From the NCBI RefSeq assembly GCF_001262635.1, contig NZ_JXYH01000005.1, positions 62,070-126,069 on the forward strand: a DNA stretch of 64,000 bases, written 5' to 3'. The notes under the pieces were generated by a model, which did not search any database, was not told the DNA's origin, and saw only the letters and a program-made list of their open reading frames with translations. Source of the DNA: Aestuariivita boseongensis (GTDB lineage: Bacteria > Pseudomonadota > Alphaproteobacteria > Rhodobacterales > Rhodobacteraceae). Shown here in pieces: positions 40,854 to 59,108 of this stretch. Within the stretch, counting starts at the first letter, position 1. The number at the start of each line of letters is the position of its first letter. The position numbers and the translations under genes are program-made.

Positions 40854-40876
40854 CCAGAACCGGGGCAGGGTGGGGT

Positions 40877-41107
40877 ATGGCACAGATACCCGAACACCTG
40901 ACACCCGAGATTTGGATAAACCAGTTTTTTGGCTCGCAGGAGGCGCAGCGCGGCGGCGTCGTGAAACGCAAGGTGCGTGATGTGGAACGGCTTGTCGGCC
41001 ATGAGGCCTTCATTGCCGAGGTTGAACGGCGCGGTTTTCAAGCCGTGCGCAACAATCTGCATTACGTGGTCTTCTGCAATATGTTGCCGATCCGCCGGGT
41101 CCGGTGA
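40877..41107 (+). CDS. Small hypothetical ORF between trpF and trpB
   Basis: 76-aa ORF with genome-like codon bias. No recognisable family. Ends immediately before the palindrome array. Confidence 0.35.
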   Translation: MAQIPEHLTPEIWINQFFGSQEAQRGGVVKRKVRDVERLVGHEAFIAEVERRGFQAVRNNLHYVVFCNMLPIRRVR

Positions 41108-41108
41108 C

Positions 41109-41255
41109 AAGGGCCTTGGAAGGCCCTTGTTCAAGCGGTTTCGAAACCGCTTGAACAAGGCGTTTCGAAACGCCTTCCCCACCTTCGCCAAAGCTGTGAA
41201 GGCGAATTTTCGAAAATTCGCTTCTGCCGGCAAGCGATCCTTCGAAGGATCGCTT
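41109..41255. repeat. Array of five consecutive palindromes, all centred on TTCGAA (TTGGAA in the first)
   Basis: Directly read: AAGGGCC-TTGGAA-GGCCCTT (41109-41128). GTTCAAGCGGTTTCGAAACCGCTTGAAC (41129-41156, perfect 28 bp). GGCGTTTCGAAACGCC (41159-41174). GCGAATTTTCGAAAATTCGC (41202-41221). AAGCGATCCTTCGAAGGATCGCTT (41232-41255). Confidence 0.85.
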
Positions 41256-41308
41256 TACCCTCCTCATACGTCCCGCTAAACCGGGGAAAGCCAATTGGGG
41301 ACACCAAG

Positions 41309-42553: not shown

Positions 42554-42591
42554 AATATTCCATCTGAAGACCTCCGGCAAACGGGGCGGCA

Positions 42592-42623
42592 GGGCGGCCA
42601 GACCGGGGCCGCCCTTTTCATTT
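42592..42623 (+). terminator. Rho-independent terminator after trpB
   Basis: GGGCGGCC-AGACCGG-GGCCGCCC hairpin followed by TTTTCATTTG. Confidence 0.65.
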
Positions 42624-43253
42624 GTTGCGCAACTGCGCAATTTTGTTGCGCGCACACCACAGGCGCTTCCGCCACGTAAATCTTTTTGTTGAGCGAAGCC
42701 GCCGCCGCGCCGTATTCCAGCCCTCCCAATTGGAGGCGATCTTCAAGGTTCAGGGTCCAAACCTGACCGGTGCGGCTGGCGCTGCCTGACCGTATGCCGA
42801 TCGCAGACAAACGGGGGCCGATTCCAAAACTCGGATAGAGCGTGGGCCTCTTCAAAGCCCTGCCGTGAGGCACCTTTTCGGACATTGCCACGTCCGAACA
42901 CCATCCATTCGGTGTTCCTTTCATCGGATCGCCGGGCCCGCGCAGCGTGCGGCCCGGACCGCAACCGGCTTTGCCATTTGCGGGACAAACCAACCGCTGC
43001 TCTGGCCTTGTGCCAGGGACGTGGATGACGGATCCGCCGCCCTTTGGCCCGCCGCTGGCGCGCCTCTGGGTCGCGCCCCTCTCGCCCACGATCCCTCGTC
43101 CGGGGGCATGGCAAAAGGTTCGGCGATCCACCCCGCCCCCCGGCTCAGGGGCATCACACCTGCGGTCCATGACGGGCCCAACCCACCCAACCAGAAAAGG
43201 AGTTCGCGTTTTGCGACGACGATGACACCCGCAGCTAACAAAGGAGATATGTG

Positions 43254-44387
43254 ATGCGGTTTTTTGATTTTTTGACCCCGAAACGACGGGTCGTGGTGGC
43301 CGCCGATGAACGCGCGGTGATCACACGAGACGGCACAGTGGTCGATGTGCTTGGGCCTGGCACCCATTCCATCGTTCACACAGACACCGCCACACGGGTC
43401 CGCCTTGAGGATCCCATAGTTCCTTTGGTTGAAGCGCGGAGGCTTTTCGTCACAAATCCGGACTTGGCGAAGCGCCATTTCCAGTTGGTTGAGATGGGGC
43501 CGCATGAGATCGCGGTTGCCAATCGGCACCAGGCGTTCTCCCACGTGCTTTTGCCGCGTGAGCAAGTGGTGTTCTTGGCGGATGCGCTCGATTTGACGAT
43601 CGACCGGATCGACATCACGGCGTCCCGCATGTTGCCGACGGATGTCCGCGACCGGTTCTTGCAGGGGGCTACCCCGCATGAATTCAGGCGCATCGATGTG
43701 CCTGCCGGTCATGTTGCGGTGGTCTTTGACGGGGATGCCCCGCCGATGGTGATGCAGCCCGGGACGGAGTTCTTCGTCAGAACCGGTGCGATCTTCCACA
43801 TGCGCACCATGACCATGCGCCAGCAGGCGATGGAGGTCACCGGTCAGGAGATCTTGACCCGCGACCGTGTCTCTGTCCGCGTGAACGTCACGGTGGCCTT
43901 CGTGGTCGAAGACCCTGTGCGGGTTGTCACCACGACCGAGGGGGTCAACGAGGTCTTGCGCACCGCCGTGCAATTGGCCGCGCGGGAAACCTTGGGGGCC
44001 GTCACGCTTGACGGGCTTTTGGAAGACAAGGTGGCGATCAACCGCGAGGCCGCCGACAGGGTCCGCGCCGAGATGGCAGAGTTCGGGATCAAGGTCACGA
44101 CTCTTGCCCTCAAGGACGTGATCTTGCCCGGGGAGATGCGGGAGATCCTTACCTCTGTCGTCGCCGCGCAGAAAGAGGCCGAGGCGAACGTCATCCGCCG
44201 GCGCGAGGAAACGAACGCCACGCGGTCCTTGCTTAACACGGCAAAGGTGATGGCGGACAACCCGGTGCTTCTCAGGCTCAAGGAGCTTGAGGCGCTTCAG
44301 GCGATCGCCGACCGGGTCGATACGATCACGGTGCATAACGGGACCGAAGGGTTGATGACCGATTTGGTCCGGTTGCGCGACCGGTAA
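43254..44387 (+). CDS. SPFH/band-7 (stomatin/HflK-C-like) domain protein
   Basis: AAGGAG RBS 7 nt upstream. SPFH core (IFHMRTMTMRQQAMEVTGQEILTRDRVSVRVNVTVAF) and coiled C-terminus (AAQKEAEANVIRRREETNA). Confidence 0.8.
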   Translation: MRFFDFLTPKRRVVVAADERAVITRDGTVVDVLGPGTHSIVHTDTATRVRLEDPIVPLVEARRLFVTNPDLAKRHFQLVEMGPHEIAVANRHQAFSHVLLPREQVVFLADALDLTIDRIDITASRMLPTDVRDRFLQGATPHEFRRIDVPAGHVAVVFDGDAPPMVMQPGTEFFVRTGAIFHMRTMTMRQQAMEVTGQEILTRDRVSVRVNVTVAFVVEDPVRVVTTTEGVNEVLRTAVQLAARETLGAVTLDGLLEDKVAINREAADRVRAEMAEFGIKVTTLALKDVILPGEMREILTSVVAAQKEAEANVIRRREETNATRSLLNTAKVMADNPVLLRLKELEALQAIADRVDTITVHNGTEGLMTDLVRLRDR

Positions 44388-44409
44388 AACACAGCTTGGG
44401 GCGGTCGGG

Positions 44410-44952
44410 TCAGACCCGGTCGCCCCTTGCGTTTTCCACCACAGAAACAGCAGGCGCACGGGCCGTGTCGTCCAGCCCGTCCAACAGATCCTCGATAAAA
44501 TGGCTCAGCAGTTGGGGCCGGCCCGAAACCCCGGCCTTGCGATAGATGGCGGCGGTCTGCGCCTTGACCGTTCCTTCCGAGGTCGAGCGCAGCTGAGCGA
44601 TCTCCTGCGTGGTCAGCCCCTTGATGGCAAACAGCGCCACGTCGCGTTCTGCCGGGGTCAGGCCCCATTCGGTGAAAGACTCCTCCAGCAGGTCCATGAA
44701 CGCGCCCGAGGCGATGCGAAGCTGCGATTTCATCCGCGCTGCGTCGCGCAGGGATCGGCGCAGAACCAGCGCACCGAAACCGACACCGCAGACCAGCCCG
44801 ATGGCCGCGCCTACCTGCATCAATTCGTAAAGCTGCCAGTTGATCGGCGCGACGGGCAGGGCCAGCAATGTGACCAGGATATCGAAGGTGAAGAAGCCTG
44901 CGCAAAGAACCTGAATGATCAGCAACAGCGCAATGGCCCAGCGACGTGTCAT
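44410..44952 (-). CDS. Membrane-anchored LuxR/GerE-family transcriptional regulator
   Basis: Two N-terminal TM helices. C-terminal LuxR HTH (LTPAERDVALFAIKGLTTQEIAQLRSTSEGTVKAQTAAIYRK). Confidence 0.75.
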   Translation of the reverse strand: MTRRWAIALLLIIQVLCAGFFTFDILVTLLALPVAPINWQLYELMQVGAAIGLVCGVGFGALVLRRSLRDAARMKSQLRIASGAFMDLLEESFTEWGLTPAERDVALFAIKGLTTQEIAQLRSTSEGTVKAQTAAIYRKAGVSGRPQLLSHFIEDLLDGLDDTARAPAVSVVENARGDRV

Positions 44953-44961
44953 GCGTCGTCG

Positions 44962-45453
44962 TCAGTCATCGCCGCCTCCGTCGCCGCCATCTCCGTCGCC
45001 GCCATCTCCGCCGTCGCCATCGCCGTCGCCGTCACCGTCACCGCTGCCGGGACCACTGCTGTCGCTGTCGCTGTCGCTGTCACTATCGCCGTCGTCGCCG
45101 CCATAGCCGTCATCCCCGCCATAGCCATCGTCGCCATCATCATCGCCGCCATGGCTTTGATCGCCACCGCCGCGTCCGGGAGAGGCCGCGCCGGGGTCGA
45201 TCAGTTGGATGCGTTCCCGCTGGCGGGCGAAGTCGCGCAGGATGACGCCTGTGACGGGGTTGAAGATGATTTCGCGGTTCAGGCTGTCGTTCTGCGCGGT
45301 GATCCGACCACGGCCCAGAAAGGTGCGGCTGACCTCGATATTCGAATATCCCTGCGCGCGCAGTTGGGACACGATGCTGCGTTCAAACGAGTTTGCGCTG
45401 GCCACGGCGGGTGTCAGCACCAGGGCAAAGATCAGAAGCAGTCTGCGTAGCAT
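44962..45453 (-). CDS. Secreted PepSY-like domain protein with a ~75-aa poly-acidic Asp/Gly/Ser tail
   Basis: Signal peptide MLRRLLLIFALVLTPAVASA. PepSY-like fold segment (LRAQGYSNIEVSRTFLGRGRITAQNDSLNREIIFNPVTGVIL). Tail made of DGDGDG / DSDSDS / GGDD repeats. Confidence 0.65.
   Translation of the reverse strand: MLRRLLLIFALVLTPAVASANSFERSIVSQLRAQGYSNIEVSRTFLGRGRITAQNDSLNREIIFNPVTGVILRDFARQRERIQLIDPGAASPGRGGGDQSHGGDDDGDDGYGGDDGYGGDDGDSDSDSDSDSSGPGSGDGDGDGDGDGGDGGDGDGGDGGGDD
44965..45165. repeat. Tandem hexa/trinucleotide repeats (GTCGCC / GCTGTC units) encoding the acidic tail
   Basis: Runs such as gccgtcgccatcgccgtcgccgtcaccgtcaccg and gctgtcgctgtcgctgtc were read directly. Confidence 0.7.
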
Positions 45454-45537
45454 CGCGTTTTCCCACAAAGAGCCCCCGCGCGGATTGCGCGAGGGCCTGC
45501 TTGTCACACCAACAATAGGGCGTGTTGGTGCCGAGGA

Positions 45538-46176
45538 TCAATCATCGCCGCCGTCACCGTCACCGTCACCATCGCCGCCATCCCCGTCTCCGCCGTCGCC
45601 GTCTCCACCATCGCCGTCACCGTCGCCGCCGTGGCCGCCGTCATCTCCTCCGTGGCCACTGTCATCGCCACCACGACCGCTATTGTCGCTATCGCTATCG
45701 CTATCGCTGTCGCTGTCGCTGTCATCACCGCCACGGCCACTGTCGTCACCGTCGCTGTCGTCACCGCCACCACGGCCATGGTCATCACCGCTGTCGTCGC
45801 CGTCGTCGTCGCCACCGTTGTCGTCATCACCATCGTCGTCGCTGTCATCATAGCCATCATCATCGCTGTCGTCGGGGCTGTTGTCGTCATCGCTGTCGTC
45901 ATCATCCGAGCTGTCATCGTCGTCGGAATCATCATCCGAGCTGTCATCGGATGAGCTGCTGCTGACGCGCCCGTCGCTGTCGTCATCGCCATATGTTTCG
46001 TTGAAATCGTCAATGCCGCGGACCCGTATGACAAGACCGGGAAGATCGCCTGTATCGGGGGCCGAGATAACGGCCAGCGGACCCAGCATATCAGGCTGGC
46101 GCGCAATCCCGACCGAGGCCTGGGCGGTACCGCCCAGCAGGATGGCAAGAGTGGAAAAGGTGATCACGGGTTTCAT
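45538..46176 (-). CDS. Secreted protein with a short N-terminal domain and a ~150-aa poly-acidic (Asp/Ser/Gly) low-complexity tail
   Basis: Signal peptide MKPVITFSTLAILLGGTAQA. ~45 ordered residues, then an uninterrupted D/S/G-rich sequence ending GGDD, like its neighbour. Confidence 0.6.
   Translation of the reverse strand: MKPVITFSTLAILLGGTAQASVGIARQPDMLGPLAVISAPDTGDLPGLVIRVRGIDDFNETYGDDDSDGRVSSSSSDDSSDDDSDDDDSSDDDDSDDDNSPDDSDDDGYDDSDDDGDDDNGGDDDGDDSGDDHGRGGGDDSDGDDSGRGGDDSDSDSDSDSDSDNSGRGGDDSGHGGDDGGHGGDGDGDGGDGDGGDGDGGDGDGDGDGGDD
45541..45960. repeat. Extended tandem hexanucleotide/trinucleotide repeats (GCTATC/GCTGTC/GTCGCC/GTCATC units) encoding the second acidic tail
   Basis: Example: gctatcgctatcgctatcgctgtcgctgtcgctgtc. 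Many GTCGTC/ATCATC runs. Confidence 0.7.
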
Positions 46177-46376
46177 GCTGCGTTCCTTTCGCGTGTGGGG
46201 GACCGGCTTGGGGGGCAGATCCGATGCGAAGTAACAGAGCAGCCAGGCGCCAGCCCCTCCATTGGACTGAGGCTTAGGGGCGCGAATTCTACCTTTGGTT
46301 TATGATTGCCCTGTTCCGGCGGCGCGCGGCGGGGGCAAAACAAACCAAAGTTTATGCGACATGCGCGCGCTGGTGC

Positions 46377-46751
46377 TCAGTGGGCCAGTGCGTGGGCCTT
46401 CAGAACATCCAGCGGAACGATCTCCAGCGCGCGTTGATGGGTGGCGGTCAGCTTCACGCGGGGGGCGCAGCCTTCATCGGCGGCCTGCAGAAAGCGGCTG
46501 GCACACAGGCACCACTGATCTCCCGGCTTGAGGCCGGCAAAACCGAATTCGGGCCGGGGCGTTGACAGGTCGTTGCCCACATATTTCGAAAAGGCCAGGA
46601 ATTCGGCTGTCATCACCGCACAGACGGTGTGGCTGCCGTGATCGGCCGCGCAGGTGTTGCAATGCCCGTCGCGGAAAAAGCCCGTCTTGGGATCGTTCGA
46701 GCACAGCTCAAGCGCCTCACCCAGAACGTTGATGCTGTCTTCCGGTTCCAT
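46377..46751 (-). CDS. DUF2237-family protein
   Basis: MEPEDSINVLGE.LE.CS.DP.TGFFRDG.C.T...D.GSHTVCA.MT.EFL.FS...GNDLSTP pattern characteristic of this conserved family. Confidence 0.7.
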   Translation of the reverse strand: MEPEDSINVLGEALELCSNDPKTGFFRDGHCNTCAADHGSHTVCAVMTAEFLAFSKYVGNDLSTPRPEFGFAGLKPGDQWCLCASRFLQAADEGCAPRVKLTATHQRALEIVPLDVLKAHALAH

Positions 46752-46764
46752 CGGTCGGTGTCCT

Positions 46765-47940
46765 TCAGTTTTGCGCCAGATCGGCGATCTTGCGCATCAT
46801 CTCAACATTCGCAAGGTTCACGCCGGGCTCGCGGAATTGGCGGTCGGCGGCGGTGGTGACGATCACCAAATCGCGCTCCTGATCAATATAGATATATTGC
46901 CCGTAAATTCCGCGCCCCAGGAATTCTTTTTCGCGCGGCTCCACCGGCACCCACCATTGATAGCCATAGCCGATCTGACCCGGCGCAGTGGGCGCACTGG
47001 CTTTCGTGCTTTCGGCGATCCAGTCGGCGGGGACGATCTGCTGGCCGTTCCATTTCCCGTCCTGTTCGATCATCTGGCCAAAGCGCGCGTAATCGCGGGT
47101 GGTCATCAGGATGCCGCCCAGCACGATCGCAACACCGGCCCCGTCGCTGATGAACCGCGGCGCGCCTTCCAGACCCAGCGGCGCGATGATCTTTTCGCTC
47201 ATCAGTTCGGAGACCGGGCGGCCCGTCGCGCCCCGGATCACCATGCCCAGCACATGCGTGTCGAGAGAGACATATTGCCAACGCTCCCCCCGCGTGCCGT
47301 CGGTTTCGGAAAAGCTGGCGGTGAAATCATCCATCAGCCCCCCCAGCGCCAGCACCCGGCCCATGCGCTGAATGTCGGACCGCTGGTCAAGGTAATCCTC
47401 GTCAAAGACCACGGTGCTGGTCATCTGCAATACGTTCCGGATCGTGGCGCCATCATAGGCGGTGCCCGCCAGTTGGGGCACATATTGCGTGACCGGATCG
47501 TCGATGGAGCCAATGGCCCCTTCCTCGAGCAGGATGCCGAAAAGCGAAGACATGAAGCTTTTGGCCAGCGACCACGAGATCCGGTGATCATCGGCTTCGG
47601 TGCCCAGGTAATAGCCTTCATGCACGATCTCGCCCCGGTGCAGCACCAGAAGGGATGTCAGGTCGGCCTCTGCCACCCAGGCGGTCATCTCGGGGGTCGG
47701 CGTCAGGGGGGCGCCTGCGGGCAGGGGTGTGACCGGGCCATCGCCGCGCGGGACGGGCACGGTCAGGAAGGCTTTGTCCATGTTCGAGAAATTCTCGACA
47801 ATCCGGCCTTCGTTGAACAGCGTCACCACGAAATGCAGTCGCTTGATCTGTTCCCACTTCCAGACGCCGACAACCGTTGCGGCCAGAACCAGCATCAGCA
47901 AGATGCGGCCCAGCCATTTCCCGAATGTGCGCATGATCAT
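46765..47940 (-). CDS. Serine hydrolase of the beta-lactamase/transpeptidase family (esterase or class-C-like)
   Basis: SxxK active-site motif (SLAK). YGYQWW-type C-terminal region. N-terminal signal-like segment. Start ambiguous among three closely spaced Met. Confidence 0.75.
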   Translation of the reverse strand: MIMRTFGKWLGRILLMLVLAATVVGVWKWEQIKRLHFVVTLFNEGRIVENFSNMDKAFLTVPVPRGDGPVTPLPAGAPLTPTPEMTAWVAEADLTSLLVLHRGEIVHEGYYLGTEADDHRISWSLAKSFMSSLFGILLEEGAIGSIDDPVTQYVPQLAGTAYDGATIRNVLQMTSTVVFDEDYLDQRSDIQRMGRVLALGGLMDDFTASFSETDGTRGERWQYVSLDTHVLGMVIRGATGRPVSELMSEKIIAPLGLEGAPRFISDGAGVAIVLGGILMTTRDYARFGQMIEQDGKWNGQQIVPADWIAESTKASAPTAPGQIGYGYQWWVPVEPREKEFLGRGIYGQYIYIDQERDLVIVTTAADRQFREPGVNLANVEMMRKIADLAQN

Positions 47941-48025
47941 CCCCCGATATTTGCGGGCCACGTTACGCAAGGCCGGATGGGGTGCAAGCCCGACGTGCCG
48001 TCAGAGAGATCGGCATGTCCCGCGC

Positions 48026-48703
48026 TCAGCGGAACTTGTCCATCAGTTTCTGCATTGCGCTGCGGGTGTCTTCCGGTTCGGGTGCGGGGTCTGCCGGTTT
48101 GCTGTCCGCTTTGGGCTTCGTCGTGCTGGATCGCGGCGGGTTCGTTCGCAGGCTGACGGCGTTCAGAAACTTGCCGCTGTCGCCCTGCGCCAGCATCGGC
48201 GCGCCGTCCGAGACACCGCGCAGAACATCGTCCAGCCACTCCTGATCGGCCTTTCCGAAATCATGCAGCACGTAGTGTGACACCAGATCCTTGCGGCCCG
48301 GATGTCCGATACCCAGTCGCACGCGTTTATAGGCCTCTCCGATATGGCCGTGGATCGACCGCAAGCCGTTATGGCCCGCATGGCCGCCCCCCATCTTCAC
48401 GCGCACCTTGCCGGGGGCCAGATCCAGTTCGTCATGGAAGACGGTGATGTCCGATGGCTCAAGCTTGTAGAACCGCATCGCCTCTCCCACAGACTGGCCG
48501 GAGAGATTCATGAACGTGTCGGGTTTCAGCAACAGCACCTTGGCGCTGCCCAGACGGCCTTCGCTGATCTGGCCCTGAAACTTCGATCGCCACGGCCCGA
48601 ACCCGTGATCGTCGGCGATCCGGTCCAGCGCCATGAAGCCGATATTGTGCCGGTTGCCCGCGTATTTGGGGCCCGGATTGCCGAGGCCAACAAAGATGTG
48701 CAT
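48026..48703 (-). CDS. pth: Peptidyl-tRNA hydrolase, with a basic C-terminal extension
   Basis: VGLGNPG...GNRHNIGF...MNLSGQSV motifs. Confidence 0.9.
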   Translation of the reverse strand: MHIFVGLGNPGPKYAGNRHNIGFMALDRIADDHGFGPWRSKFQGQISEGRLGSAKVLLLKPDTFMNLSGQSVGEAMRFYKLEPSDITVFHDELDLAPGKVRVKMGGGHAGHNGLRSIHGHIGEAYKRVRLGIGHPGRKDLVSHYVLHDFGKADQEWLDDVLRGVSDGAPMLAQGDSGKFLNAVSLRTNPPRSSTTKPKADSKPADPAPEPEDTRSAMQKLMDKFR

Positions 48704-48777
48704 GGTTTGGCTTGAACTCCGTTGTCTTGGGGACAGATATGCCCCGATCAGACAGCAATTTCCAGCAAGAGGCCGCG

Positions 48778-49089
48778 ATGTATCTGACGATGAACCGTTT
48801 CAAGGTCCACCCTGACAAGATCCAGGCGTTCGAGGCGCTTTGGCTTTTGCGCGACAGCCACCTGAAATCGGTGCCGGGCTTCATCGCCTTCCATCTGATG
48901 CGCGGGCCGGAACGGGGTGATCATGTGCTTTATGCCTCCCACACCGCGTGGGAGAGCGAAGAGGCCTTCACCGACTGGACCAAATCCGAGGTGTTCCGTG
49001 CGGCCCACAAGGATGCGGGCGGCAGCCGGGATCTGTATCTGGAGCCGCCCGAGCTGGAGATTTTCGAGACGGTGCAGGAATTGAGCTGA
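48778..49089 (+). CDS. Antibiotic-biosynthesis-monooxygenase (ABM) domain protein
   Basis: ~100-aa ferredoxin-like ABM fold (MYLTMNRFKV...GFIAFHLMRG). Confidence 0.7.
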   Translation: MYLTMNRFKVHPDKIQAFEALWLLRDSHLKSVPGFIAFHLMRGPERGDHVLYASHTAWESEEAFTDWTKSEVFRAAHKDAGGSRDLYLEPPELEIFETVQELS

Positions 49090-49235
49090 GGTTTGAGAGC
49101 GCAGGGTTCGGGACCGGCGCGCGACAGACTGCGTTCAGACCGAAGCGGCCAAACAGAACCGGCACGCGCTTTGTGCGACCTCGCGCCCTGCAGATGTTTC
49201 TTCCGGCCCGGACGAGGCCTTGCCGGGCACCCGGT

Positions 49236-50411
49236 TCAGCCAGTTTCCGCACGCCCCAGCAACGCCCGTGCGATCACTTCGCGCTGGATCTCGCTTGTTC
49301 CTTCGAAGATGCGCATCACGCGGGCGTCCCGGTAAAGCCTCTCGATTTCGTAATCGCGACTGTATCCGTTGCCGCCATGAACCTGCAGCATCTTGTCGAC
49401 AACGCGACCGCACATTTCGGACGCGGCCAGTTTCGCCATCGAGGCTTCGGACCTTATGGCGCCATCGCGATCCAGCAGCCGCGCGCCCCGCAGCATCAAA
49501 AGCCAGGCCTGATCCAGTTCGGTGCGGCAATCCGCTATGGTAAAGCGCGTATTCTGAAAGGTGCTGAGCGGTACGCCGAAAGCTTTACGGTCGGCCGCAT
49601 AGGCCATCCCAAGCTCGAGCGCGCGTTCGGCAATGCCGATGGACTGAGCGGCAATCGCCAGACGGCTTGCGCCGATCCCCGACAGGGCCGCCGCGTATCC
49701 TTTTCCCGGTGCGCCCAGCACCTGAGCGTCAGATACCCGGGCATCGTCAAACTGCAACACCGCCGTGCCTGACGAACAGAGCCCCAGTTTGTCTTCGACC
49801 CGACCCAGCGAAAAGCCGGGGGTATCTTTTTCGACCAGAAAGGCCGTTACGGCGCCGTCACCCAGCTCGGGCGTTCTTGCAAACACCAGGAAAAGCTGCG
49901 CGCCGGCGGCCCCGGTGATCCATTGCTTTGTTCCATTCAGAACCCATCCGTCCCGGTCACGCACCGCTTGTGTCGTGATGCCGCCCGCGTCCGACCCTGC
50001 GCCAGGTTCTGTCAGGGCAAAGGACAGCGCACCAAGTTCGCCGTGGATGGCCGGGGCAAGATAGCGCTGGCGCTGGTCGTCGGTGGCATGCGCGTCGATG
50101 ATCGCCGCAGCAAGGTTGGAGGCAACCATGACAACGCCAACCGACGCATCCATCCGAGAGATCGCCTCGACCGCCAGGACATAAGCGGTTGTATCGGCCA
50201 AAGGCTCTTCACCCTCGGCACGGGCTTTCATGGCCATCCCGCCAAGCGCGGCAAGTTCCGAAATCAGGTCATTGGGGAAGGCGTGGCTTTTGTCGCGCGC
50301 GGCGGCACCTGGCGCCAGACGGTCTTTGGCGAACCGCAGCATGGTGTCGCGGATCTGGATCTGATCGGCCGTGAAATCGAGAGCGAAGCGTTCAAGGTCA
50401 TCAGCACTCAT
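49236..50411 (-). CDS. Acyl-CoA dehydrogenase
   Basis: ACAD N-terminal, middle (FALTEPGAGSD) and C-terminal (GGNGYSRDYEIERLYRDARV) domain signatures. Confidence 0.85.
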   Translation of the reverse strand: MSADDLERFALDFTADQIQIRDTMLRFAKDRLAPGAAARDKSHAFPNDLISELAALGGMAMKARAEGEEPLADTTAYVLAVEAISRMDASVGVVMVASNLAAAIIDAHATDDQRQRYLAPAIHGELGALSFALTEPGAGSDAGGITTQAVRDRDGWVLNGTKQWITGAAGAQLFLVFARTPELGDGAVTAFLVEKDTPGFSLGRVEDKLGLCSSGTAVLQFDDARVSDAQVLGAPGKGYAAALSGIGASRLAIAAQSIGIAERALELGMAYAADRKAFGVPLSTFQNTRFTIADCRTELDQAWLLMLRGARLLDRDGAIRSEASMAKLAASEMCGRVVDKMLQVHGGNGYSRDYEIERLYRDARVMRIFEGTSEIQREVIARALLGRAETG

Positions 50412-50687
50412 CTTTGCGGCCCTTCTTCCGTCCTGTTGCGGGTAAAGGACAACGAAACGCCCATTTTGACAAGTCAGACCATGTGGCGTGACGCTGGCGG
50501 TTGCGATGGAAACGGTGGGGCATCGCATGGCGCATTGGAATCCGGGCGTCATCCGCAAGATCAGACGGGTGACCGCCAGCACCGCCCAACCTTTCGCGCA
50601 AGACACCCACTCGAAAAAGAAAAACGGCCAGCAGATGTCCTGCCGGCCGTTTCCATTCTGACCCAGGCGCCCTGACGGGCGGAGGGT

Positions 50688-51350
50688 TTATTCTTCGCCG
50701 CCTTCGGCTTCGGCTTCTGCGGTGGTGGGCACTTCATCGGCCTCCACCTCTTCCTCGTCCTCGTCTTTCTGCGAGGCCAGACCAGACGGTGCCTGGATGT
50801 TGGCGATCACGAAGTCGCGGTCGATGGTGGGTTTCGCGCCAGAGGGCAGATCCACGGACGAGATGGTGATCGTGTCGCCGATCTCCAGACCCGACAGATC
50901 GACAACTACCTTCTCGGGAATGTCGCCCGCGGTCACGACCAGTTCCACCTCGGGGCGGACAACGGTCAGCACGCCGCCTTTTTTCAGGCCGGGGGCTGCG
51001 CCTTCGTTGGTGAATTCAACCGGGATGAACAGGTTGATTTTCGTGGTGCGGCGCAGGCGCATGAAATCCACGTGAGTGGGCAGGTCTTTGACCACGTCGC
51101 GCTGCACGTCGCGGCAGATGACGCGCACGTCGTCATGGCCATCGACTTTCAGGTTGAACAGGGTCGATTTGAACCGCCCGGCTTTCAGCATTTTCAACAG
51201 TGCGTTGAACGGAATGTTGATCGGAAGCGGATCGTTTTCGCCACCAAACACAATCCCCGGAACCAGCCCGTCGCGGCGGGCCTGACGAGCGGCGCCCTTG
51301 CCTGTCCCCGTCCGTTCCAGGGCGACAAGATCAGGAATCTCACCAGCCAT
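50688..51350 (-). CDS. rplY: 50S ribosomal protein L25 / general stress protein Ctc
   Basis: [21 protein letters not shown]25 signature plus a C-terminal acidic tail. Confidence 0.9.
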
Positions 51351-51432
51351 AGAATATCTCCAAATTGTAAGGGCAGGGTGCCTCCAAGGCTGTCACCCCG
51401 CATGAAGCCGCGGCTTTAGACGGGAATCGCCG

Positions 51433-52872
51433 TTATGACAAGGGCAAAGATGGGGCTGGCCGCGCCTGCGGGCGCACAAGGCCCCAAAGGCCGGGAATGG
51501 CCAAGAGACCCGGCGGGACACAGGCGAGGAAAACAAGGTAGGCCACGTGTCGTGCGTCCGAGGTGGTGGACATGTCGAGAAAGCCCGCCGTGTTGGCCAC
51601 GATCCCGATATAGGCTGCGCCCAAAGCATAGCCGAACCGCTGGATTGTGGGCAGGGCACCGGCGATGCGCTGGGCCTCATCCGCGGGGGCAAGGGCGGTG
51701 GTGCGGCGGAGGATGAAGGTCCAGGCGATGCCGAACCCGCCGCCTTCGACAAGTGCGCAAAGCGCGATCAGCCACAGCGGCCCGTGCGGCACCGCATAGA
51801 GAAAGCCGGGGATGGAGAGGAGAACAAGCGCAATACCCAGCGTGATCAGCTGCGGATCGCGCCGTTCCGGGGCGGAAGAGACGAGGATCGCCGTGATTGT
51901 CCACCCGATGGAGGAGCAGGCCACGATATAGCCCACGGTCAGGGCAGAGGCCCCGTGGATGGCGGTGATCAGAAGCGGGCCGAAAGCGGTGATCGCGATG
52001 GTGGCCAGCGACAGCGCAAGGATCATGGACAGCGTCGCGCCTGCGGCTGTGCGCGGATCGAAGGGCGCGCTGGGCAGCAGGCGGGTGGCGGGCGTGGCGC
52101 GGCTGTCCTGCCAGAGAAACAGGGCGAAGGCTGTCAGGCCAGCACCCACCAGGAGGGAGGTTTGCAGCGGTTGCACGTCGATCCCCGCAATGGCCACAAG
52201 CAGGACGGAGGCCATGAGCAGCGACAGCCGGATTGCGGGGAAGCGTTCAGTGGCGGGGATATCCGATTGGCCGTCCTGCGGTGCCCGCAGAAAGATCCAC
52301 AGCGCCAGCACCAGCGCCTGTGCGGCGAAGAACGCGAAGCCCCAGCGCCAGGTGGCGAATTCCACGAACAGCCCTCCGATCAGCGGGCCGGTGAAGGCCG
52401 ACATGCCCCACAGCGCCGACACCGCCGCCAGGGCCCGCGCGGTATAGCGGGGCGGAAAAAGGACCGACACCGCGACAAAACCCATGGCGACAAGGCCGCC
52501 GCCGCCGATGCCCTGCAGCAAGCGCCCGGTCAGAACGACAGGCATGGAAGGGCTGACCGCGCTGAGCAGGCATCCCGCGCCGAAGATCAGCGCGGCCAGA
52601 CCCATGGGCGCGCGAAAGCCGTGGCGCATCACCAGCAGCGCCGAGGCCGCGCCCGCGATGATCGAGCCGATCTCGTAAAGCGCGACAGACCAGCCCACCA
52701 GCGCCGCCCCGCCGATATCGGCCACGATAGAGGGCAGCATGGTCGACACCACAAGGCTGTCGGCGGCGTGCAGCCAGACCGCAAGGCAGACCAAGAGAAG
52801 GGAGGGCACGTGGATAGCGCCGAGAAACTCGGCCCAGCTGACATGCTCGTTCTGGTTCAATTCCTTTTCCAT
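51433..52872 (-). CDS. MFS transporter (DHA2-like, ~14 TMS)
   Basis: Fourteen hydrophobic segments. MFS motif A context (GRLLQGIGGGG). Confidence 0.8.
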   Translation of the reverse strand: MEKELNQNEHVSWAEFLGAIHVPSLLLVCLAVWLHAADSLVVSTMLPSIVADIGGAALVGWSVALYEIGSIIAGAASALLVMRHGFRAPMGLAALIFGAGCLLSAVSPSMPVVLTGRLLQGIGGGGLVAMGFVAVSVLFPPRYTARALAAVSALWGMSAFTGPLIGGLFVEFATWRWGFAFFAAQALVLALWIFLRAPQDGQSDIPATERFPAIRLSLLMASVLLVAIAGIDVQPLQTSLLVGAGLTAFALFLWQDSRATPATRLLPSAPFDPRTAAGATLSMILALSLATIAITAFGPLLITAIHGASALTVGYIVACSSIGWTITAILVSSAPERRDPQLITLGIALVLLSIPGFLYAVPHGPLWLIALCALVEGGGFGIAWTFILRRTTALAPADEAQRIAGALPTIQRFGYALGAAYIGIVANTAGFLDMSTTSDARHVAYLVFLACVPPGLLAIPGLWGLVRPQARPAPSLPLS

Positions 52873-52967
52873 GACCTCAGTGGTAATTCCTCAAGCCAAC
52901 TTGAGGTCAAGCGGTTTTTTCACCTGCGCGCTTGCCGGGGGTATCGGGGTGTGAGAAGGGCTGTGCC

Positions 52968-54125
52968 ATGCCGTTCCTGACGCCCATACCCGGATTGCGC
53001 GCCCCTGCGCTGGCCTTTGTCGCGCAGGGCATGGTCTGGGCCGCCTTTGCCGCGCAGGTGCCGGTGATCAAGGCGCAGATCGGCGCGTCGGATGCGCAGA
53101 TCGGGACGGTGTTTCTGATCGCGTCGCTGGGGGCGATCGCGTCGGTCTGGATTGCGCCGGTCGCGGACCGCCTGTTGGGGGCGCGGTCTGTGGCGGTGAC
53201 CTCGGCCCTGTTGGGGCTGATCTTTATCGCCTTGTCGCTTTCGCCGAATATCCTGACATTTGTCGTGGTTTTCCTGGTGGTTTCGGCGATCTCGGGCGTG
53301 TCCGACATCGTGATGAACGCGCGCACCTCGGAGGTGGAAAGCGCGCAGAACCGGTCGCTGATGAACCTGAACCATGCGGCCTTTTCCTTTGCCTATGCAG
53401 GCACGGCGCTGATGACGGGTTTCGCGCGGGAGGCCGGGTTTGGCCCGCTGGCGATCTTCGCAGTGGTGGCCGCGATCATTCTGGCGATGTCGGTCTTCAT
53501 GCACGCGCCCCACGGCGCCCACGAAGAAAACGCCCATGACAGCCCGGCCCTGCCCATGGGGCTGGTCTGGGTCGGCGGGTTTGTCGTGATGGCGGGGTTT
53601 TTCACCGAAGTGGCGGTCGAGGGCTGGTCGGCCCTGCATATCGAACGCGAGCTGGGCGGCGATGCTACGGCGGGTGCGCTGGGCCCTGCAATTCTGGGTT
53701 TGACCATGGGGTTCGGGCGGCTGGTCGGGCAGGTGCTGACCCGGTATTTCACCGACACGGCGCTGATCGCCGGGGCCTGCCTGACATCGGCGCTGGGCGC
53801 TGTGATGGCGGCGCTGGCGGGAAGCCCGGCCATGGCGCAGGCCGGGTTCGGCGTGATGGGGCTGGGCGTGTCGCTGGTGGTGCCGCTGGCCATGGGGATC
53901 ATCGGGCGCAGCGTGGCCCCGTCGCAGCGGGTGGCCGCCTTGTCGCGCGCGTCGGCCATCAGCTATGCCGCCTTTGTGGTAGGGCCCTTCACAATGGGGG
54001 CCGTGGCCGAGGCCGTGTCGCTGGCGGCATCCTTCGTGATGGTGGCGGCGATCCTTGTGGCGGTCACGGTGGGGCTGATCCCCATTCTGACGCGGCGGTT
54101 ACGCGCTGTGGGGGGCGAACTCTAG
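52968..54125 (+). CDS. MFS transporter (12 TMS)
   Basis: GAGAAGGG RBS. 12 predicted TM helices. Divergent from the neighbouring MFS gene. Confidence 0.75.
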   Translation: MPFLTPIPGLRAPALAFVAQGMVWAAFAAQVPVIKAQIGASDAQIGTVFLIASLGAIASVWIAPVADRLLGARSVAVTSALLGLIFIALSLSPNILTFVVVFLVVSAISGVSDIVMNARTSEVESAQNRSLMNLNHAAFSFAYAGTALMTGFAREAGFGPLAIFAVVAAIILAMSVFMHAPHGAHEENAHDSPALPMGLVWVGGFVVMAGFFTEVAVEGWSALHIERELGGDATAGALGPAILGLTMGFGRLVGQVLTRYFTDTALIAGACLTSALGAVMAALAGSPAMAQAGFGVMGLGVSLVVPLAMGIIGRSVAPSQRVAALSRASAISYAAFVVGPFTMGAVAEAVSLAASFVMVAAILVAVTVGLIPILTRRLRAVGGEL

Positions 54126-54725
54126 CACGCCGCCCGCATCCATCAGCCTGTCATAAAGCGCAAATTCCTTGGCCCGGGCGGCGCGGAGTTTGGCAAGCGT
54201 TGCAGGCTCAAGCGGGGTTTCGCCCTTGGGAGAGACATTCTGCTTCTTGAACTCAAGCGCTTCGCCGAACCGGTCCTGCAGAAATGCGTGGAACCGGTCG
54301 CGATGGGCATAGGCAAAAAGCCGGTGCACCAGGACGTCGCCACTGGCGGAGGTGAGGAATTTGAACTGGCTGCCCACGGCGGCGTGATCGGGCGGGTCAT
54401 CCGCGATCACATCAAGGATGAACTGGTCAAAGCTGATGCCAGCAGTGCTTTTGGGTGATCCGCGCAGATCGGCATTGGTGCGGTATCGGTACCAGCTGGA
54501 CAGCTGTTCGACCGGATCGCGCATCACGGCCACGCGGTCGGGGCGCAGGTTATAGGCCTGTTCCAGAAAGGGCGCGACGCGGTTATGAAAACCGCGCGCG
54601 GGCATGTGTTTGCGGTGGCGGGCAAAAACGATATCGGCCCGCCGTTTCAGCGCCATTTCCACGGCGGTCGTGCCGGTTTTCGGCTCGGCGAGATAGGCAA
54701 GGTTCTGGCGCGAGAAAATCAGCAT
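54099..54725 (-). CDS. Sulfotransferase-family protein
   Basis: 5'-phosphosulfate-binding loop AEPKTGTTA. 3'-PB-like RxxS context. ~200-aa size typical of Stf0-like sulfotransferases. Confidence 0.6.
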   Translation of the reverse strand: MLIFSRQNLAYLAEPKTGTTAVEMALKRRADIVFARHRKHMPARGFHNRVAPFLEQAYNLRPDRVAVMRDPVEQLSSWYRYRTNADLRGSPKSTAGISFDQFILDVIADDPPDHAAVGSQFKFLTSASGDVLVHRLFAYAHRDRFHAFLQDRFGEALEFKKQNVSPKGETPLEPATLAKLRAARAKEFALYDRLMDAGGVLEFAPHSA

Positions 54726-54749
54726 GACCCGAGCCTTAGCCTGATTGCC

Positions 54750-55916
54750 CTATTGCTGCCAACGGCCTTCGAAATCTTCCGGCACCAGCAGGTTGTGCCG
54801 GCCCAGATTTTCAACCGACCGTTCACCGCAGAGCGCCATGGTGGTGTCGAGTTCCTTGTGGATGACCTCAAGCGCCTTGGTCACGCCTTTCTGGCCCATC
54901 GCGCCCAGCCCATATACGAAGGCGCGCCCGATATAGGTGCCTTTTGCGCCCATCGCGACGGCCTTGAGCACGTCCTGGCCGGATCGGATACCGCTGTCGA
55001 GGTGGACTTCCATCTTGTCGCCGACGGCATCCATGATCTGCGGCAGCATGCGGATCGAGCTGAGTGCGCCGTCGAGTTGGCGGCCGCCGTGGTTCGACAC
55101 GACGATGGCATCTGCGCCCAGCTTAGCGGCCATCTTGGCGTCTTCGGCATCCAGGATACCTTTGAGGATGACCTTGCCGCCCCACATCTCCATCAGTTTT
55201 TCGATCTTCTTCCAGTCGAGCGTGAGGTCGAATTGCTCGGCCGTCCACGCGCCCAGGGAGGAGGCGTCAGAGATGCCCTGCACATGGCCCACGATATTGC
55301 CGAATTCGCGGCGCTTGGCAGAAAGCATTTCGATGCCCCAGGCCCATTTGGTCATCAGGTTGGCGATGGTCTTGGGGGTCAGTTTCGGCGGGGCGGAGAG
55401 GCCGTTTTTGAGGTCTTTATGCCGTTGGCCCAGGATTTGCAGGTCAAGCGTGATCACCAGGGCTGAGCATTTGGCATCCTTCGCGCGCTGGATCAGGCGG
55501 CGGACGTAGTCTTCGTCCTTCATGGTATAAAGCTGGAACCAGAAGGGTTTGGAGGTGTAGCTGGCCACATCTTCGATCGAGTTGATCGACATGGTCGAAA
55601 GCGTGAAGGGCACGCCGAATTTCTCGGCCGCGCGGGCGGCTTTCATTTCGCCATCTGCATGCTGCATGCCGGTCAGGCCGACGGGGGCCAGCGCCACGGG
55701 CATGGCGACGTCTTCGCCGATCATTTGCGTTTTTGTGCTGCGGCCCGACATGTCGACGGCCACGCGCTGGCGCAGGCGGATCTTGTCGAAATCGGAGGTG
55801 TTTTCGCGGAAGGTCTGTTCCGTCCAGCTGCCTGATTCCGCGTAATCGTAGAACATCCGCGGCACGCGACGTTCATAGATGCGGCGCAGGTCTTCGATGT
55901 TGGTGATCACAGGCAT
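54750..55916 (-). CDS. lldD: FMN-dependent L-lactate / alpha-hydroxy-acid dehydrogenase
   Basis: FMN-binding alpha-hydroxy-acid oxidase fold motifs (PFWFQLY, SNHGGRQLD, catalytic His context). Confidence 0.85.
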   Translation of the reverse strand: MPVITNIEDLRRIYERRVPRMFYDYAESGSWTEQTFRENTSDFDKIRLRQRVAVDMSGRSTKTQMIGEDVAMPVALAPVGLTGMQHADGEMKAARAAEKFGVPFTLSTMSINSIEDVASYTSKPFWFQLYTMKDEDYVRRLIQRAKDAKCSALVITLDLQILGQRHKDLKNGLSAPPKLTPKTIANLMTKWAWGIEMLSAKRREFGNIVGHVQGISDASSLGAWTAEQFDLTLDWKKIEKLMEMWGGKVILKGILDAEDAKMAAKLGADAIVVSNHGGRQLDGALSSIRMLPQIMDAVGDKMEVHLDSGIRSGQDVLKAVAMGAKGTYIGRAFVYGLGAMGQKGVTKALEVIHKELDTTMALCGERSVENLGRHNLLVPEDFEGRWQQ

Positions 55917-56050
55917 GACGGTCCCCTTGCAATTGGTCTGATTTTCTTACCGGCGGGCAAAAAGATTCTCAATGCGGCACGATCGCCTTGATTTTGAAGA
56001 TGCGATATGTATCTAAATAGTGCAATATCGTATTAATTGGAGAGATCGCC

Positions 56051-57190
56051 ATGACATTGTCGCGCCGCAAAACCCTTGCCCTGATCGGGGGCGGAACCAT
56101 TTTCGCAGCAAGCTCGGCCGCTGGGTTTGCCGTCACCCGCATGCCCGAAGATGCCGTCGCCCCTTGGGCGGCTGCGGGGGGATATGACGATCCGCGCCTG
56201 CGTGCGCTGAGCTATGCGATCCTGGCGCCCAACCCGCATAACCGGCAGCCGTGGAAGGTGGATGTGTCAGTGCCGGGGGAGGTGACGCTTTATGTCGATA
56301 CGGACCGCCTGCTGCCGCATACCGACCCGTTCAGCCGTCAGATTGTGATTGGCTTGGGCTGTTTTCTGGAAGTGATGCGGATGGCGGCATTGGAGGATGG
56401 ACATTCTGTTGAGACGGTGGTGTTTCCCGACGGCTCGGACCCGGAGGCACTGGATGCGCGCCCGGTTGCGCGCTGTCGGTTCGTGAAGGCGGATGTGGTG
56501 CGGGATCCTTTGTTTGCCCATGTGATGGAGCGGCGGTCTTTGAAGGAGCCGTTTGATGTGGAGCGTCCGGTGGATCAGGCGGTGTTGGACCGGATTTTGG
56601 CGGCGGCGCGGTCTTCGGACGTGGGGGGATCGGTGGCGCCTGAGGATATCGCGGCGTTGCGGGAGTTGAGCCACGAAGCGCTGCGGATCGAGATCGAGAC
56701 GCCGCATACCTATAAGGAAAGCGTGGATCTGTTCCGCATCGGGCGGCGCGAGGTGAATGCGAACCCGGACGGCATCGATTTCTCCGGCCCGATGTTCGAG
56801 GCGATGGCGCTGACCGGTACCTTTACCCGCGAGGCGGCGCTGAACCGGGAAAGCCTGGCCTATACCGAAGGGCTGAAGGCGGTATTTGCCAATACCGATA
56901 CGGCCATGGGCCATTTGTGGCAGGTGACGCGCAGCAATACGCGCGCCGATCAGATCGCGGCGGGGCGCGATTGGGTGCGGCTGAACCTGGCGGCGACGGC
57001 AGAAGGGTTGGGCATTCAGCCGCTGAGCCAGGCCCTGCAGGAGTATCCGGAGATGGCGCAGCTTTATGACGACATTCACGCACGGCTGGCGCCGCAGGGC
57101 GGAACCGTGCAAATGTTTGCGCGGATCGGATATGGCCCCGAGGTTGGAGCAAGCCCGCGCTGGGCGTTGGAGGAGAAGATTGTCGGATAA
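56051..57190 (+). CDS. Tat-exported nitroreductase-family (Acg-like) protein
   Basis: Twin-arginine signal SRRKTLALIGGG. Two nitroreductase-like halves. Confidence 0.65.
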   Translation: MTLSRRKTLALIGGGTIFAASSAAGFAVTRMPEDAVAPWAAAGGYDDPRLRALSYAILAPNPHNRQPWKVDVSVPGEVTLYVDTDRLLPHTDPFSRQIVIGLGCFLEVMRMAALEDGHSVETVVFPDGSDPEALDARPVARCRFVKADVVRDPLFAHVMERRSLKEPFDVERPVDQAVLDRILAAARSSDVGGSVAPEDIAALRELSHEALRIEIETPHTYKESVDLFRIGRREVNANPDGIDFSGPMFEAMALTGTFTREAALNRESLAYTEGLKAVFANTDTAMGHLWQVTRSNTRADQIAAGRDWVRLNLAATAEGLGIQPLSQALQEYPEMAQLYDDIHARLAPQGGTVQMFARIGYGPEVGASPRWALEEKIVG

Positions 57191-57206
57191 GGCAGAGGTG
57201 AACCCG

Positions 57207-57674
57207 ATGGCGTTGTTCCAGCTGTTCAACGAGATCGGGATCATCGAACAACTGAGCCGCACAATCATGGAGGCGCGACTGCCCAAAGGGCTGATCGCGC
57301 CCCATTTCGGTGTGCTGAACCATCTGATCCGGGTCGCTGATGGGCGCACTCTGGTCGAGTTGGCGCGGGCGTTTCAGGTGCCGAAGACCTCGATGACGCA
57401 CACGGTGGCGGGGCTGTCGAAACATGGGCTGGTGATGGTGCGTCCGAACCCCAATGACGGGCGCAGCAAATGTGTGTGGATCACTGATGAGGGCCGTGCG
57501 CTGCGCGATCGGGTGATCACCGATCTGACGCCGGAGTTCCAGGAATTGCTGGACGGGTTCGATGTGGAACGGCTGTTCGCCATCCTGCCGGTGCTGACGG
57601 ATCTGCGTGTCTTCCTTGACGAGCATCGCAATGCCGAGGCCCCGCGCGACCGCGAATTTCGCACGCAGGCGTGA
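57207..57674 (+). CDS. MarR-family transcriptional regulator
   Basis: Winged-helix (LARAFQVPKTSMTHTVAGLSKHGLVMVRPNPNDGRSKCVWITDEG). AGAGG RBS. Confidence 0.85.
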   Translation: MALFQLFNEIGIIEQLSRTIMEARLPKGLIAPHFGVLNHLIRVADGRTLVELARAFQVPKTSMTHTVAGLSKHGLVMVRPNPNDGRSKCVWITDEGRALRDRVITDLTPEFQELLDGFDVERLFAILPVLTDLRVFLDEHRNAEAPRDREFRTQA

Positions 57675-57815
57675 TCCAAAGGTGCGGCTGACGCCGCATT
57701 CTTTTTGTGGATTTGCCGCTTGGGGGTTTTGTTCAGCCTGAATGTGTCGAGTATGGCCCGGTGGCCTCTGTTGGAGTGCCGTATTTGGAAAGAGAAGAAG
57801 AGAGGGCCGCGCGCC

Positions 57816-58259
57816 ATGTATTTCGACGATATGCCGGTTGGGTTTACCTTTGAGACGGGCAGCCGGACGCTGAGCGCGGAGGCGATCAAACGGTTTGCGC
57901 GGGAATGGGACCCGCAGCCCTTTCACCTGGATGAGGATGCGGCGGCGGCCTCGGTTTACGGCGGGCTGATTGCCAGCGGGTTTCACACGGTGCTGACGGC
58001 ATTTACCCTGACGCTGGAGGCAAGCGATTGGTCGGACAGTTCCATGGGATCGCCGGGTATGGAGAATGTGCGCTGGATCAAGCCGGTTTATGCGGGCGAT
58101 ACGCTGCGGGTGAAGGCCGAGGTGACGGCGGCCACGCCGTCGCGGTCAAAGCCCGATCGCGGATTTGTCGAGGTGCAGTATGATATCCTGAACCAGGATG
58201 ACGTTCTGGTCGCGGCCTACCGGGCGAGCCATATGCTGCGCCGCCGTCAGGCGGAGTGA
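57816..58259 (+). CDS. MaoC-like (R)-hydratase/dehydratase (hot-dog fold)
   Basis: [14 protein letters not shown]...[10 protein letters not shown] hot-dog motif. Confidence 0.8.
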
Positions 58260-59038
58260 GCACCGTCAGCCAGAGATTTCACGAAATCCAGCACATCGTC
58301 CACCGGTTTGCCGGCGGCGATCTGACTGACGATGGCTGAGCCCACGACAGCGCCGTCAGAGACGCTGGCGATGGTTTTGGCGCGGTCCGGCGTGTTGATG
58401 CCGAAGCCCACGATCACCGGAAGGTTGGTCTGCGATTTGATGCGTGCCACTTCGGGGCCGACGTCGGAGGCCTGCGCCTCGGCCGAGCCGGTGATACCGG
58501 TGATCGAGACGTAATAGACAAAGCCGGAGGTGTTCTGCAGCACGCGCGGCAGGCGCTTGTCATCGGTGGTGGGCGTGGCAAGGCGGATGAAGTTCAGCCC
58601 GGCCTTTTGCGCGGGGATGCACAGTTCGTCATCTTCTTCGGGCGGCAGATCAACGACGATAAGGCCGTCGATGCCCGCCTCGACCGCTTCGGCCAGGAAC
58701 CGGTCGACGCCGCGCGAATAGATCGGGTTGTAATAGCCCATCAGCACAATGGGGGTGGTGTCATTGGTGCTGCGGAAGTCGCGGACCATCTGCAGGGTCT
58801 TGTCCACGGTCATGCCGCCTTCGAGTGCGCGTTGACCGGCCAGCTGGATCGTGGGGCCATCAGCCATGGGATCTGTAAAGGGCAGGCCCAGTTCGATGAT
58901 ATCGACGCCCGCGCCGGGCAGGCCCTTGACCACCTCAAGCGAGGTGGCGACGTCGGGGTCTCCCGCCATCACATAGGCGACGAAGGCTTTACGACCTTGG
59001 GCTTTGAGGTCGGCGAATGTCTGGTCAATCCGGGTCAT
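58247..59038 (-). CDS. trpA: Tryptophan synthase alpha chain
   Basis: VAYVMAGDP...[17 protein letters not shown]...VDLPPEE...[13 protein letters not shown] motifs. Confidence 0.9.
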
Positions 59039-59108
59039 GGGGCGCCTTTGGCTGAAGGTGTCGGCACCTGTTGCCAAAAGCGGATCAGGAAATCAATGCG
59101 TCTTGCGA

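Follow-up and report, generated by a model that had tools for sequence, protein, structure and literature searches.

The separation of trpB from trpA and of pth from ychF in Aestuariivita boseongensis belongs to an old gene order shared across Rhodobacterales

In Rhodobacter (Cereibacter) sphaeroides 2.4.1, chromosome II reportedly carries trpF-aroR-trpB, whereas trpA stands alone on chromosome I (Mackenzie et al., Genetics 1999). The detachment of trpA from trpFB is already known from Rhodobacter, and the gene order in Rhodobacter sp. CZR27 agrees with it. A collinear trpFBA-accD-folC operon has been published for Sinorhizobium meliloti (PMC6614838) and SAR11 (PMC2395257), and pth-ychF forms an operon in Escherichia coli and other enterobacteria (PMC8779481). 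From metagenomes, Kagan et al. (2008, PMC2395257) described solitary trpA or trpB genes with non-trp neighbours as frequent among marine bacteria and ascribed them neither to Rhodobacterales nor to an inversion; our literature searches found no paper describing a trp split in Rhodobacterales. Here we analyze the segment between trpB and ychF in a 64,000-nucleotide stretch of the Aestuariivita boseongensis contig NZ_JXYH01000005.1 (hereafter the window).

In the window, trpB (plus strand) and trpA (minus strand) are 15.7 kb apart and enclose rplY and pth, both on the minus strand; ychF, outside this interval on the plus strand, is divergent from trpA. A preliminary description had read the interval 42554-59108 as a relatively recent inversion. 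We find instead that the arrangement is almost certainly ancient and shared and that it is the ordinary gene order of the lineage, inherited by most Rhodobacterales. With a probability of about 0.72, it represents a fixed order-level rearrangement, made of an ancestral segment reversal and a further event, that later settled and grew, and not an event in this genome. The positions and strands given earlier for trpB, trpA, rplY, pth, and ychF were all confirmed by open reading frames (ORFs), codon-position GC, and Pfam. The G+C of the window is about 62% and raw ORF lists are therefore crowded; genes were chosen by codon-position GC and named via Pfam and NCBIfam. Look-ups by exact sequence for TrpA, YchF, and P0121 of the window gave no match, whereas a homology search showed its TrpA to be 100% identical to that of A. 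boseongensis. The genes needed for the argument are the following.

Upstream part of the left flank: trmB, aroA, and cmk (plus strand), then three minus-strand genes, then rpsA
37443..42553, plus strand: rpsA-ihfB-lapA-trpF-trpB cluster, the unmoved left flank (Pfam)
37443-39278, plus strand: rpsA
39442-39831, plus strand: ihfB
39835-40188, plus strand: lapA-domain gene
40200-40853, plus strand: trpF
41309-42553, plus strand: trpB (PALP domain), last gene of the truncated trpFB unit
46377-46751, minus strand: DUF2237 gene (Pfam)
46765..48703, minus strand: beta-lactamase-family gene and pth (Pfam)
48026-48703, minus strand: pth
50688-51350, minus strand: rplY (L25/Ctc; Pfam)
58247-59038, minus strand: trpA, detached from trpB and presumably transcribed on its own (Trp_syntA, E=1.9e-97)
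59039-59108: gap of 70 bp between trpA and the PagL-like gene
59109-59600, minus strand: PagL-like gene (Pfam)
about 59787-60899, plus strand: ychF, the unmoved right flank, divergent from trpA (Pfam)

Scanning a single genome for each species gave 80 trpA loci, labelled Rhodobacterales except for a few unplaced or oddly named metagenome-assembled genomes, and the proteins of the window were mapped onto them. The two split junctions, divergent ychF<>trpA and convergent DUF2237-><-trpB, recur in dozens of genera (>40), including Ruegeria, Sulfitobacter, Shimia, Aliiroseovarius, Cognatishimia, Litoreibacter, Loktanella, Halocynthiibacter, Mesobaculum, Paracoccus, and Rhodobacter, and they share one taxonomic distribution. 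On the right side, ychF was divergent from trpA at a distance of at most 2.6 kb in 47 of the 63 loci with enough upstream DNA; the divergent pair was present in 66 loci overall, with a gene-free gap of 69-390 bp in 35 of them. Downstream of trpA, the block trpA-FMN dehydrogenase-(208-aa gene)-(MFS)-rplY is widely conserved, as is the order pth-beta-lactamase-DUF2237 in relatives, and both rplY and pth were found in 27 of the 53 loci with at least 9 kb of downstream sequence. On the left side, a convergent trpB follows 4.9-9.0 kb after trpA in 14 loci and is itself followed by trpF-lapA-ihfB-rpsA where the locus reaches that far; DUF2237-><-trpB was seen in the 14 loci that extend to this point, with gaps of 26-108 bp in five of them. 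The trpB of the window is 86-93% identical to that of most split-type relatives, down to the lowest full-length value.

The un-inverted order, which the preliminary description had proposed to look for in close relatives, was not found there. Four independent metagenomic assemblies of relatives whose TrpA is 92-94% identical agree with the window at the right junction and in the interior as far as rplY: ychF (minus strand), PagL, trpA, MaoC, MarR, nitroreductase-like, FMN dehydrogenase, the 208-aa gene, MFS, MFS, and rplY, with a 70-bp PagL-trpA spacer that is 85-86% identical. More distantly, a complete replicon of Tritonibacter mobilis, filed as a plasmid, carries trpB (plus), pth (minus), and trpA (minus) within 13 kb, and both junctions are found in this replicon and in Paracoccus onubensis (L076). 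The 860-kb secondary replicon of Rhodobacter sp. CZR27 reads phoH...metK-trmB-aroA-cmk-rpsA-ihfB-lapA-trpF-GNAT-trpB-><-DUF2237, with no trpA nearby. The region was further rearranged in a lineage-specific manner in L019, L022, L033, L055, and L076, and also in Pseudorhodobacter and some Paracoccus. The same two junctions are thus conserved across many genera, so that the trpB/trpA pattern exceeds chance, and their presence in these genera and in the four close-relative assemblies effectively excludes both a misassembly and a recent event.

More generally, core genes were observed on large secondary replicons filed as plasmids: the rpsA-trpFB cluster in Rhodobacter, trpB in Thioclava, Paracoccus, Tritonibacter, and Pseudorhodobacter, and accD-folC in five Ruegeria strains (sample: matches H1-H15, L092, and L099).

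The collinear order, in which a small gene separates co-oriented trpB and trpA, was found in three of the 80 loci (L064, L072, and L075). On longer contigs of this type, the order is aroA-cmk-rpsA-sppA-ihfB-lapA-trpF-(GNAT...)-trpB-yodC-like-trpA-abhydrolase-accD-folC-<trx<addA, and a contig of this lineage, which is sister to the split genomes, comes from a Thermohalobaculum sp. assembly, placed in Rhodobacterales by NCBI, and is collinear up to trpA. S. meliloti has trpF-trpB-trpA-accD-folC-<trxA<addA, the trpB-trpA-accD-folC adjacency is also present in Sphingomonas, and pth has the same orientation as ychF in E. coli, where the two are neighbours, and also in S. meliloti (rplY-pth-<clpS-ychF) and Sphingomonas. 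The order aroA-cmk-rpsA-ihfB-lapA-trpF-trpB is the same in the left flank of the window, the collinear relatives, and Rhodobacter sp. CZR27, and is the ancestral alphaproteobacterial order. Since outgroups and the Thermohalobaculum-like lineage keep trpB-trpA-accD-folC, the collinear order is ancestral. In a neighbour-joining tree of concatenated TrpB and TrpA (outgroups E. coli, Sphingomonas, S. meliloti, and Nitratireductor; 300 bootstraps), Rhodobacterales were monophyletic in 300/300 replicates, the split genomes including Paracoccus in 286/300, and the collinear genomes in 230/300. These sequences indicate that the split arose once, deep in Rhodobacterales.

The small gene between trpB and trpA in the collinear lineage encodes a YodC/DUF2158-like protein with an Arg/Gly (RGG)-rich tail (L064 8724-8921, L072 9542-9955, L075 9533-9970, and L081 10001-10363; also in L082, L083, and L089). 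This protein has 479 homologues at E<=1e-3, mostly from metagenomes, and lay between trpB and trpA in all seven fetched loci. The PagL-like gene was considered as its homologue and rejected, as the small gene is YodC/DUF2158-like and has no match in the window. Among the outgroup records, CP090106.1 (L093 and L096), labelled S. meliloti plasmid pSymB, measures 3.72 Mb and carries rplY, pth, ychF, trpFBA, accD, and folC; it looks like a chromosome under a wrong label.

Both junctions of the window carry conserved elements.

42591..42625, plus strand: intrinsic-terminator-like hairpin that begins 38 nt past the stop codon of trpB, with a 9-bp stem (eight G-C pairs) followed by a T-run
59066..59097, minus strand: conserved trpA upstream element ATTGATTTCC-N8-TTTTGGCAA, starting 59 nt before the ATG within the 70-bp PagL-trpA gap

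The trpF-trpB unit ends without trpA at a terminator-like hairpin, beyond which an unrelated gene follows. Ruegeria arenilitoris (L003) shares, at 82% identity, 56 nt that cover the first half of this hairpin. At the other junction, alignment of short ychF-trpA spacers from 32 genera revealed the conserved block cATTGATTTcC...TTT.gGCAA. When at most one mismatch is allowed, 55 of 81 split-type loci have ATTGATTT in the 120 nt before trpA (background rate 0.028 per 120 nt), almost always at −55 to −69 from the start codon; the element was absent from all eight collinear loci examined. Thus, trpA appears to have its own long-standing control element. The element looks like a promoter or an operator and is a candidate promoter. 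These findings also displace the breakpoints proposed earlier. The 70-bp trpA-PagL gap, taken as the right one, holds this clade-wide element, and the PagL-like gene is a later insertion; on the left, the ancestral junction is trpB-><-DUF2237, with a gap down to 26 bp, and not the present spacer between trpB and the Band7 gene.

The following history would account for this arrangement. In the ancestor of the main Rhodobacterales clade (Roseobacteraceae together with Paracoccus and Rhodobacter relatives), a short segment from trpA to rplY-pth-(DUF2237) would have been reversed, which would have severed trpB from trpA and pth from ychF and created two new junctions, the convergent trpB-><-DUF2237 and the divergent trpA<>ychF. 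At least one additional rearrangement would have taken accD-folC away from the 3' side of trpA. Afterwards, trpFB, ending at an intrinsic terminator, and trpA, expressed from its own conserved upstream element, would have become separate transcription units, and TrpA and TrpB would thereby no longer be translationally coupled.

One reversal predicts that trpA is opposite trpB, that rplY-pth is opposite ychF, that the 5' end of trpA faces ychF, and that the 3' end of pth/DUF2237 faces trpB, and an inversion is thus the most economical explanation. What the data show is how the genes are ordered, where this order occurs, which state is ancestral, and that the elements are conserved; from this, we infer that the event was probably a single inversion, a point held with slightly less confidence than the history as a whole. 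As the preliminary description had proposed, reversing 42554-59108 places trpA after trpB on one strand and brings rplY, pth, and ychF into co-orientation and order. The restoration needs qualifying: rplY and pth are not adjacent here, as acyl-CoA dehydrogenase and ABM monooxygenase genes lie between them, and after re-inversion pth and ychF are still about 11 kb apart, with six genes of the interval, some 700 bp of non-coding DNA (42554-43250), and the PagL-like gene in between.

Several observations weigh against this history. The pre-inversion order trpB-trpA-...-rplY-pth-ychF was found in none of the 99 fetched loci, in which pth and ychF of collinear genomes were beyond reach. The genes after trpA in the collinear lineage are accD-folC or others and not rplY-pth, and the trp and pth clusters of S. 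meliloti are 1.1 Mb apart. The accD-folC pair is absent from the window and lies on an 811-kb secondary replicon in Ruegeria sp. THAF33 (L099). The tree is based on two proteins and on neighbour-joining only, and scanning with a simple sigma-70 consensus revealed no promoter close to trpA or ychF, including at the conserved element. The displacement of accD-folC, the distance between the clusters in S. meliloti, and the lack of an intermediate imply that one inversion, although it brings back both trpB-trpA and rplY-pth-ychF, does not account for the full history and that at least two events are required.

An alternative is a history of several independent old events, for example one in which transposition, or duplication followed by loss, brought trpA alone to a place upstream of ychF, while a separate event reversed the rplY-pth block and joined it to trpB. 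At least three ancestral adjacencies were broken (trpB|trpA, trpA|accD, and pth|ychF), so that more than one operation was needed, no intermediate genome was seen, and the region is still being rearranged in the single lineages listed above. We nevertheless consider such a history unlikely, because one reversal predicts all four relations of orientation and adjacency at once and because the two junctions do not differ in their taxonomic distribution.

A recent inversion confined to this genome or species, which repeats at the two junctions might have mediated, would also restore two canonical adjacencies by the formal reversal of 42554-59108, but it is very improbable given that the arrangement is common to dozens of genera and to the four close-relative assemblies; shared occurrence of this kind was what the preliminary description itself had named as speaking against recency. 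A search for short inverted repeats at the junctions, which it had also suggested, gave only chance-level inverted matches (20-40 nt, 70-100%), none of which paired the two junctions, and we found no transposase among the interval ORFs scanned and no insertion sequence (IS) copies at the junctions. The terminator and the trpA upstream element, both conserved, also stand at these junctions. Strand skew, a weak test for 16 kb, pointed the same way: in interior genes, whatever their orientation, plus-strand GC skew at third codon positions (GC3 skew) was +0.18 to +0.22, compared with about 0 to the left of the interval and +0.01 to +0.29 to its right, so that no island of skew reversed relative to both flanks was present and the interior had the sign of the right flank. 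The coding-strand GC3 skew of trpA did not differ clearly between split and collinear clades (medians −0.13 and −0.19). An assembly chimera at 42.5-43.3 kb or 59.0-59.2 kb is even less credible. It could draw on the unusual gene order only and on the unexplained non-coding DNA at 42650-43250; the same junctions occur in complete replicons and many independent assemblies, and the PagL-trpA gap is closely matched in the four metagenomic contigs.

Two properties of the DNA near these junctions were recorded separately. Plus-strand GC3 skew is unusually strong at 52900-59600 (+0.2 to +0.34) for both gene orientations, falls abruptly at ychF (+0.09), and is near zero in the left 42 kb. The 600 bp or so 3' of the trpB terminator (42650-43250) contained no convincing ORF, had no Rfam match, and showed only faint similarity to one relative (L003); matches of the junction regions to RNAI (24.9 bits) and ctRNA (20.1 bits) were sub-threshold and were rejected.

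The reversed block measures about 16.5 kb here and about 5 kb in the most compact relative. The remaining genes of the interval are the following.

43251..46176: Band7/SPFH (plus strand), LuxR-type (minus strand), and two acidic-tail secreted proteins (minus strand), at the left end (Pfam, translations)
48712..50606: ABM monooxygenase (plus strand) and acyl-CoA dehydrogenase (minus strand), between pth and rplY (Pfam)
51433..55916: MFS (minus strand), MFS (plus strand), 208-aa unknown gene (minus strand), and FMN-dependent dehydrogenase (minus strand) (Pfam)
56051..58259, plus strand: nitroreductase-like, MarR, and MaoC genes, convergent on trpA (Pfam)

In A. boseongensis, the block would have grown through cargo, namely the PagL-like gene, the MaoC/MarR/nitroreductase genes, a second MFS gene, the acyl-CoA dehydrogenase (ACAD) and ABM genes, and the Band7, LuxR, and acidic-protein genes. 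The PagL-like gene is present in 11 of the 66 loci with the divergent ychF<>trpA junction and was inserted later, on the ychF side of the trpA upstream element. At the left junction, the lineage-specific cargo consists of the Band7, LuxR, and acidic-protein genes, which are missing from most relatives, where DUF2237 abuts trpB. The MaoC/MarR/nitroreductase-like genes, found in some relatives only, are subclade-specific cargo, and the ACAD/ABM genes are absent from most relatives, a close relative (L085/L086) having an NMT1/ABC transporter directly after rplY instead. Such insertions would explain the growth of the block to 16.5 kb and have blurred the breakpoints proposed at first.

Several other features of the window were noted. 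The 208-aa gene (54099-54725, minus strand) has no Pfam match, directly follows the FMN-dependent dehydrogenase gene, and keeps this position in at least 15 genera. The tandem genes 44962-45507 and 45538-46176 (both minus strand) encode the two acidic-tail proteins (44962-46176), with a signal-peptide-like N-terminus and very acidic, repetitive Asp/Gly/Ser-rich tails (GDGDGGD and SDDDD runs); neither matches a Pfam family, and both genes show very strong codon-position skew. The MaoC-family gene (57816-58259, plus strand) lies near ychF, and two such genes follow ychF in S. meliloti (L093 6887-7809), which may be a coincidence since only some Rhodobacterales have MaoC at this place. The 455-bp spacer between trpF and trpB (40854-41308), occupied in many other Rhodobacterales by a GNAT acetyltransferase gene, contains a 76-aa ORF (40877-41107), conserved in L019 (51% over 76 aa), and 3' of it a 68-nt palindrome (41109-41176).

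The RNA genes of the window are a tRNA-Ser and a SAM/SAH riboswitch only. The riboswitch (RF01727, 57 bits; 27851-27900, plus strand) lies directly 5' of metK (27906-29087), as is typical of Rhodobacterales. After the tRNA-Ser(GCU) at 61571-61660, G+C drops from 62% to about 50%, and a 396-aa ankyrin-repeat gene follows (62313-63503). At the same site beyond ychF, close relatives have prophage tail and lysozyme genes (L085, 1-8100) or an integrase and a large SIR2-domain gene (L087, 1-7300). The region beyond ychF and the tRNA-Ser (61571-64000) thus looks like a variable integration hotspot.

For this genome, the arrangement has little significance, being inherited gene order. It offers a modest example of an essential and normally translationally coupled pair, TrpA/TrpB, that was split by rearrangement and is still split across a whole order, and it calls for caution in annotation, as a conserved lineage-specific order should not be taken for a recent event or an assembly error. 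It may also serve as a gene-order marker separating the main Rhodobacterales clade from the Thermohalobaculum-like lineage. A bolder proposal, which we regard as conceivable and put forward tentatively, is that the paired junctions are a single rare genomic change marking the main clade against that basal lineage, and that a dedicated, clade-wide trpA control element (ATTGATTTCC...TTTGGCAA, at about −59) arose afterwards, which replaced TrpB translational coupling and could bind an unknown regulator.

Compared with the canonical alphaproteobacterial trpFBA-accD-folC operon, the ihfB-lapA-trpF-trpB order of the window is identical, whereas trpA is reversed and detached and accD-folC is absent. 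Compared with the pth-ychF operon and the rplY-pth-ychF linkage of other Alphaproteobacteria, the window has all three genes close together, but ychF is on the strand opposite to rplY-pth and faces trpA. The window also resembles the Rhodobacter-type split, in which the trpFB cluster likewise lacks trpA at its end, with trpA detached as a single gene. The related strain Rhodobacter sp. CZR27 shows the trpFB side of that split here; the GNAT gene that it has between trpF and trpB is missing from the window, where the 76-aa ORF occupies the gap instead. In contrast to the Rhodobacter-type split, both halves in the window are on one replicon, only 15.7 kb apart with rplY-pth between them, in what would be a less derived form of the same rearrangement.

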